From Escherichia coli (GTDB taxonomy: Bacteria; Pseudomonadota; Gammaproteobacteria; Enterobacterales; Enterobacteriaceae), in NCBI RefSeq assembly GCF_001677475.2, contig NZ_CP015229.1: DNA of 64,000 nt; one strand, 5' to 3'. Below are positions 21,625 through 22,649 of this stretch, one piece after another. Under the pieces are notes generated by a model. It had not been told where the DNA came from, ran no database searches, and saw nothing but the letters and a program-made list of their open reading frames with translations. Position numbers and translations under genes: made by a program. Position 1 is the first letter of the stretch. Every line of letters begins with the position of its first letter.

Positions 21625-22649
21625 TCAGGCGAGCTGCCGAGGTTGATATTCAGTATTGTGTGACAATATTGACCACATGATCCTCGCTGTTTTTGCCGCC
21701 ATGGCGACAACAGCTACATTGTAGTGCTTCCGCTCAAGGAGTCCCTGAAGCCAGGAATTCTCCTCAACCGCGCCGTTTCGGTTGACCCAGGCGGTAAGTG
21801 CGCGTGCGCCGTGAACCAGCAGGTATCGGAAATATCCATCTCCACGTTTGCTGATCCCTCCCAGTTGTGTTTCCCGCCGCTGGAATGTTCCTTTGGTGTC
21901 AGCCCCAGCCATGAAGCGAACTGCTTTGCGGTACTGAATTGTCGGGCATTACCCACTGCTGCTACCACATAAGTGGCCGTTAGCATGCCAACCCCCGGGA
22001 TCTTGGCCATTCTCTGGCAGGCTTCCTGCGTTCTATACCAGGAGGCCAGAGCTTCTTCTACCTGTTTAACTTGTTCTTCAAGTTCCCGGATATGTTTAGA
22101 CTGTCTGTAGATGCTGGTTCTGACAAAGGGAGATAAACCATTTTCGCCATCCTCCAGAATGGCTGGCAGCTCACGGGTTAAATGGTTTTGTCCGGCCGCA
22201 ATCGTAATACCAAACTCAGCAAGTGTGGCTCTTAAACTATTGGCACAGGCAATCCGCTCACGGATAAGTATTCCCCGTTCAGTGTGTAACGCTAAAACGG
22301 CCTGCTGCTCTTCGGTTTTTATCTGAACAAAACGCATATTCGGACGGGTTACCGCTTCGCAGATTGCTTCAGCATCTGCTGCATCCGTCTTGTTCGTTTT
22401 CACATAAGGCTTCACATACTGCGGAGGTATGAGTTTTACCTCATGACCATAGCGGGTGAATAATCGCGCAAAATAATGACTGGATGAGCAGGCTTCCATG
22501 CCAATCAGACAAGGTTCCAGTTGAATCACAAACTGAACAAACTTAGCCCGGGTGAGCTTTTTACGCAAAATAGTATGGCCTTCATGATCGACACCATGAA
22601 GCTGAAAAACGTTCTTTGCCAGGTCGATACCAAGAGTTGATACTTTCAT
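21625..22649 (-). pseudogene. IS110-family DEDD transposase, frameshifted
   Basis: Two overlapping minus-strand ORFs (21714-22649 and 21625-21912); N-terminus MKVSTLGIDLAKNVFQLHG and C-terminus LGGISKRGDGYFRYLLVHGARA typical of the family; frames join only if one base is restored near 21865; AGGAG RBS 7 nt upstream of ATG. Confidence 0.75.

Follow-up and report, generated by a model that had tools for sequence, protein, structure and literature searches.

Probable recent loss of a single base from the recombinase gene of an IS1111-type element between yohP and dusC of Escherichia coli

Organization of the element and its recombinase gene

The window, by which we mean the whole analysed stretch of 64,000 nucleotides from Escherichia coli contig NZ_CP015229.1, carries an IS1111-type element of the IS110 family in the yohP-dusC spacer (Table 1). 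Its boundaries were set by comparing the empty site of E. coli HS with the filled site of XJ6.1, which leaves the ambiguity of one AT dinucleotide, and 13 other copies of the element are all 1386 bp long. Members of the IS1111 group are described as having subterminal inverted repeats of about 11-13 bp, extensions of 7 bp on the left and 3 bp on the right, a transposase of 330-350 aa, and the motif GL-P----S(T)G (PMC11187229). The present element possesses subterminal inverted repeats that are perfect over 11 bp (ATGGACGCTCC and GGAGCGTCCAT), a protein of 341 aa in its intact form, the GL-P----SG motif, and a downstream non-coding region of 274 nt. The 7/3 partition of its ends follows the IS1111 rule (PMC11187229) and is allowed by the empty-site comparison within the 2-nt (AT) ambiguity. 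In a hypothetical circle, the junction of right end and left end would form TTGCAT-16 nt-TATAAT, which resembles the junction promoters described for the family and is to be read as a sequence pattern only. A literature search by the repeat and target strings returned nothing relevant and attached no ISfinder name to the element.

Table 1. Coordinates of the element, its parts and its flanks in the window
Feature	Position	Strand	Basis
Whole IS, IS1111-type, IS110 family, 1385 bp (1386 bp when intact)	21351..22735	-	Empty/filled site comparison
Left terminal extension, 7 bp (TAATGAG)	22729..22735	-	Empty-site comparison, element ends
Left subterminal inverted repeat ATGGACGCTCC	22718..22728	-	Sequence
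ORF1, 311 aa: native residues 1-260, then 51-aa out-of-frame tail	21714..22649	-	
ORF2, 95 aa: 15 non-native residues, native Gln262-Ala341, native stop	21625..21912	-	
Ser257, AGC codon	21879..21881	-	phmmer alignment to PDB 8wt6 (IS621 Ser241)
1-bp deletion site	21867..21868	-	Alignments with intact copies
3' non-coding region, 274 nt, expected seekRNA/bridge-RNA gene	21351..21624	-	
Candidate guide GAGGUAACA, 9 nt, predicted internal loop	21506..21514	-	
Candidate second guide GGAUG, 5 nt, weak	21481..21485	-	Sequence vs predicted fold
Right subterminal inverted repeat GGAGCGTCCAT	21354..21364	-	Sequence
Right terminal extension, 3 bp (ATA)	21351..21353	-	
Left target half ...GCGCGTTTTACAGGGA, in low-copy intergenic repeat	22736..22760	-	
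Right target half TGTTACCTCGCGCCCG...	21326..21350	-	Empty-site and flank comparison

The coding part of the element is occupied by two overlapping reading frames, ORF1 and ORF2, which are the two halves of one IS110-family recombinase gene. The native part of ORF1 holds the DEDD residues D9, E52, D89 and D92, a coiled coil, and the GL-P----SG motif, which is spelled GLTPKEHSSG at residues 249-258, while ORF2 represents the lost C-terminal part of the Tnp domain. In the ISCro4/IS621 alignments, E52, D89 and D92 fall on the counterparts of IS621 E60, D102 and D105, and D9 is assigned by its motif only (GIDLAK). The intact protein aligns with IS621 (E = 1e-7) and ISCro4 (2e-8) over the C-terminal half, placing Ser257-Gly258 on IS621 Ser241-Gly242. 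The initial annotation had called the product a transposase, a label that is incomplete: the protein is a DEDD/serine recombinase of the IS1111 type, guided by RNA. Residues 130-253 of the intact protein also give a weak, sub-threshold match to the NCBIfam model of the TIGR-Tas RNA-guided endonuclease (31.7 bits, cut-off 100).

Profile searches locate the break within this architecture. ORF1 matches Pfam DEDD_Tnp_IS110 (PF01548, 57.1) and Transposase_20 (PF02371, 60.9), both above cut-off, the latter at positions 1-54 of 87 only. Against the NCBIfam model NF033542 (IS110 family RNA-guided transposase; cut-off 140 bits), ORF1 scores 283.3 bits over positions 2-270 of 343 and the intact allele scores 357.6 bits. 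The partial coverage of PF02371 and NF033542 therefore indicates that the gene is cut in mid-domain; a complete C-terminal Tnp domain is absent from the window copy, which keeps Ser257-Gly258, and present in the restored sequence.

The missing base and its ancestral state

The minus-strand string gggaaacacaactggga, found once in the window at 21850-21875, contains the point at which the reading frame changes. The native sequence of ORF1 stops at ...GLTPKEHSSGGK and runs out of frame beyond, and ORF2 contains ...QLGGISKRGDGYFRY... in the -1 frame relative to ORF1, so that the frame switch proposed at 21860-21875 from inspection of the sequence had been placed correctly. Alignment with 13 intact copies identifies the missing base as the G of a CAG codon (Gln261) between 21867 and 21868. 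The base is absent from the context ACA[G]CAAC, the window reading CACAA where the ancestral sequence reads CAGCAA, and a G on the minus strand corresponds to a C on the plus strand; among the 13 aligned copies it is G in 11 and A in two, the latter giving the synonymous codon CAA. When the G is put back, a 341-aa protein is obtained that is 100% identical to WP_059341307.1, an allele annotated in XJ6.1, JNEC-KY178 and others, and the native peptide across the repaired junction is SSGGKQQLGGISKRGD.

The initial annotation had also anticipated that one inserted base would join the two frames into a protein of about 341 aa, and this length proved exact. The base that it would have added, an A within a supposed homopolymer run, was incorrect: there is no homopolymer at the site, and the aligned copies call for G. 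The junction SSGGKHKLGG that an added A would create (KHKL) is ruled out by the same alignments, the true junction being SSGGKQQLGG. Its central suggestion, that the element is a copy inactivated by a single-base frameshift, is well supported, given that the restored protein matches an intact allele found in many genomes.

Intact copies and the age of the deletion

Comparison with other genomes shows how the deletion is distributed. In a megablast search of the element (1461-base query) against 5,426 complete E. coli genomes, full-length copies were found in 175 of them (~3%), with 1 to 4 copies each, and every full-length match listed spans 1462 bases against the 1461 of the query. A 161-base probe centred on the deletion site hit 297 places in the same 175 genomes. 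The extra base is present at every one of them, identity reaches 99.4% at most, which amounts to one gap, and none of the 297 is 100% identical to the deletion allele. At the protein level, the 90% identity cluster has 596 members, in which the listed full-length members are 341 aa long, the exceptions being the 311-aa product of the window and two 303-aa entries labelled partial. Every other copy examined against the window keeps the base and a single open frame; comparison with intact homologues was among the checks recommended at the outset.

The closest comparison is provided by a sister strain, GCA_019135675.1, which carries the same IS at the same locus with the base present, and thus the uninterrupted frame in another strain that the initial annotation had proposed to look for. 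Over 7026 bp the window differs from this genome by 2 SNPs and the deleted G only. Moreover, the IS of GCA_019135675.1 shares with that of the window lineage-specific substitutions at 21566 and 21489. Since the sister strain holds the same IS with shared markers and the base intact, the deletion is very recent, having occurred after insertion and within one close lineage.

Predicted consequence for the recombinase

The deletion lies four codons past Ser257, and the last 81 residues are swapped for 51 unrelated ones. In IS621, whose Tnp domain has seven helices, S241 makes a covalent 5'-phosphoserine link and is carried by the loop that joins alpha3 to alpha4; Y264, M265 and M268 further downstream form a DNA-opening wedge required for recombination (PMC11208158). 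By alignment, the 81 lost residues correspond to alpha4 to alpha7 of IS621 together with the hydrophobic wedge region. With this part replaced, the recombinase is almost certainly inactive, judging from an IS621 homology that extends over the C-terminal half only (E = 1e-7).

The course of events most likely ran as follows. An IS1111-type element of 1386 bp already sat at its usual target in the intergenic repeat between yohP and dusC when one G was lost from the Gln261 codon of its recombinase gene. The truncated product retains the serine loop as well as the coiled coil and the DEDD domain, which is RuvC-like, and the copy would be left stranded although its ends and its 3' RNA-coding region were unchanged. 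Contigs assembled from short reads cross the IS without interruption and continue into the unique sequence next to dusC, and this continuity suggests that the window IS is the only copy in these genomes.

Target site and spread of the element

The element shows a fixed relationship to its target. The 13 copies occupy five chromosomal loci, flanked by GCGCGTTTTACAGGGA on one side and TGTTACCTCGCGCCCG on the other, always in the same orientation. Two of the five loci are dusC/yohP and lysO/aqpZ, and the others, named by the Pfam families of their flanking genes, are TraB_PrgY_gumN with a heavy-metal P-type ATPase, OpuAC with an MFS transporter, and TerC-CorC with AsmA. Removal of the IS from the window regenerates the empty site exactly, as compared with E. 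coli HS, with no target duplication. The yohP-dusC spacer (21150-21350 and 22736-22860 of the window) is an unannotated GC-rich intergenic repeat that holds the fixed insertion site; virtually every E. coli genome has it, the median being 3 places and the maximum 8, and the MG1655 (K-12) record has no repeat feature annotated for it.

In a comparison of window 18000-26000 with complete E. coli genomes, some strains match the IS at 99.5 to 99.7% identity but the chromosome around it at only ~97%. Because the IS is more similar than its flanks, the host lineages appear to have diverged already when the element spread among them, or when it inserted independently into the one site specified by its RNA. 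In E. coli SMS-3-5 (NC_010498.1 908485-912946), a copy of the IS lies between lysO and yohP-mdtQ. Compared with the usual pairs lysO/aqpZ and dusC/yohP, these flanks suggest a large chromosomal inversion, which may have arisen when two IS copies, or the repeats in which they lie, underwent homologous recombination.

Non-coding region and candidate guides

In the IS1111 group, the region downstream of tnp encodes a seekRNA that guides the choice of target (Siddiquee et al., PMC11187229). The corresponding 274-nt region of the window folds more stably than its shuffles (z = -2.6). An Rfam search of 21100-22950 gave two sub-threshold chance matches only (AgvB and mir-611), and therefore no curated bridge or seekRNA family applies.

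Within this region, the candidate guide GAGGUAACA is the complement of TGTTACCTC, the stretch of target top strand that starts at the insertion point; support for it is modest, as 31 of 500 shuffles also reach a 9-nt match somewhere in the target. The shorter candidate GGAUG, 20 nt downstream of GAGGUAACA, is identical to the target top strand over the junction (GGA/TG, with the slash at the junction). The published seekRNA layout has a top-strand match 5' of a bottom-strand match, the two overlapping in the target (PMC11187229), and the predicted placement of our candidate guides would fit it, weak as the match is statistically. Another match of 7 nt, CGTTTTA, late in the region, is probably due to chance, being too far from the 9-nt match for one seekRNA of 70-100 nt. 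At 21489 the window has a minus-strand C, shared only with GCA_019135675.1, where 12 other copies have T; this position falls in a predicted single-stranded segment, four nucleotides 5' of the candidate GGAUG guide.

Alternative explanations

Could the missing base be an error of sequencing, assembly or polishing, with the true gene intact at 341 aa? A single base is all that separates the window from the copy of the sister strain, and the deletion is in no complete E. coli genome, so the suspicion voiced in the initial annotation was a natural one. However, the exact 311-aa product is encoded in GCA_018683435.1, a contig of which shows 100% identity with the window across 12,936 bp, and the deletion is present in independent read sets: the same product is found on a raw-read contig from Logan, ERR10434813_210, which is common to 17 samples and independent of the NCBI assembly, and which covers the entire IS within a 6147-bp stretch of 100% identity with the window. 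These 17 samples may be repeat runs of one clone, which makes them less informative on spread, yet they still speak against random error. Furthermore, the context ACA[G]CAAC offers no homopolymer, and the neighbouring genes are free of disrupting indels, 43/43 reference genes across the first 49 kb of the window being full length in a single frame. An apparent second frameshift, in mlrA, turned out not to be a defect of the window, in which mlrA (6898-7629) is an intact 243-aa ORF; it reflects an 8-bp duplication in the reference strain HS, where the tandem repeat (GGCTGGAG) alters the C-terminus of the gene, annotated as 262 aa. Because the deletion recurs in the contig of 17 samples and the 43 neighbouring genes are intact, sequencing error is very unlikely. 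We give still less credence, practically none, to the idea that full-length protein is still made across the split, through programmed -1 ribosomal frameshifting or transcriptional slippage of the kind found in the IS1 and IS3 families. ORF2 does lie in the -1 frame and GGGAAAC stands directly 5' of the deletion site, so that the earlier remark that no slippery heptamer is evident was not literally true, but this string is read GGG AAA C in ORF1 (phase 0) and not G GGA AAC, which is the wrong phase for -1 slippage, and the remark holds in substance: no X XXY YYZ heptamer in the 0-frame phase was found at the ORF1 site. The sole in-phase A AAG site is upstream of the catalytic serine, which a shift there would remove; there is no A/T run able to support transcriptional slippage, and the single ORF in every other copy examined means that the frameshift is not conserved.

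A genuine mutation might still leave a copy that is not fully dead, either mobile in trans by means of an intact copy or producing a 311-aa protein that interferes with intact recombinase through its coiled coil. The intact element of the sister strain has exactly the same ends, subterminal repeats and 3' non-coding region, which makes mobilization in trans possible in principle; the non-coding region of ISEc11 acts in trans (PMC11187229), and IS621 dimerizes via a coiled coil (PMC11208158) that is kept in the truncated protein. On the other hand, the unbroken short-read contigs suggest that no second copy supplies recombinase, and the allele, limited to one close lineage, shows no sign of having been selected in its truncated form, so that we consider residual activity of either kind quite improbable. 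A more elaborate version, in which the element is retained as a non-autonomous supplier of functional seekRNA and ends, or the 311-aa protein is a dominant-negative regulator of incoming intact copies, strikes us as highly improbable. The frameshift is an ordinary pseudogene of a known and widely annotated IS110/IS1111-family element, with nothing new in it. We are confident, to a high degree, that a genuine and very recent one-base deletion has inactivated the RNA-guided recombinase of this IS1111-type element of the IS110 family between yohP and dusC.

Relation to known systems

For annotation, the locus should be labelled as an RNA-guided transposase pseudogene of the IS110/IS1111 family, disrupted by a frameshift, in which the native sequence is ...SSGGKQQLGG...; the wider import of the frameshift is small. 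It does offer a clean natural example of an IS1111-type element disabled four codons past the catalytic serine with its ends and guide-RNA region untouched, and the pair formed by the window and the sister strain could serve as a natural control for the role of the C-terminal half of the Tnp domain.

The nearest relative is the intact allele itself (WP_059341307.1; XJ6.1, JNEC-KY178 and GCA_019135675.1), which is the same element at the same yohP-dusC target, 99.7 to 99.9% identical in DNA and 100% identical in protein after the G is restored. The intact allele encodes 341 aa, whereas the window copy, one G short in codon 261, encodes 311 aa, of which 260 are native. The described ISEc11/IS1111 elements (PMC11187229) resemble the window element in their subterminal repeats, in ends compatible with the 7/3-bp partition, and in a transposase of ~340 aa with GL-P----SG; they share likewise a long downstream non-coding region, insertion into a specific target in one orientation without duplication, and, as a sequence pattern only in the window element, a -10 box at the circle junction. 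They differ in that the target is ...TTTTACAGGGA/TGTTACCTCG... here and GTGAAAATACTG in ISEc11, the length is 1386 bp here and 1443 bp in ISEc11, which was compared by its published description, and a seekRNA is established for them (PMC11187229) whereas that of the window element is predicted only.

IS621 (PDB 8WT6; PMC11208158) likewise combines a coiled coil with a RuvC-like DEDD domain and a Tnp domain whose catalytic Ser lies in an SG loop; it is nevertheless distant (E = 1e-7, C-terminal half), of the IS110 type, with its bridge RNA upstream and without subterminal repeats. The overlap of ORF1 with an ORF2 in the -1 frame recalls the programmed -1 frameshifting of IS1 and IS3. In contrast to those families, the window lacks a slippery site in the required phase and no other copy shows the split, as befits a mutation and not a regulatory device.
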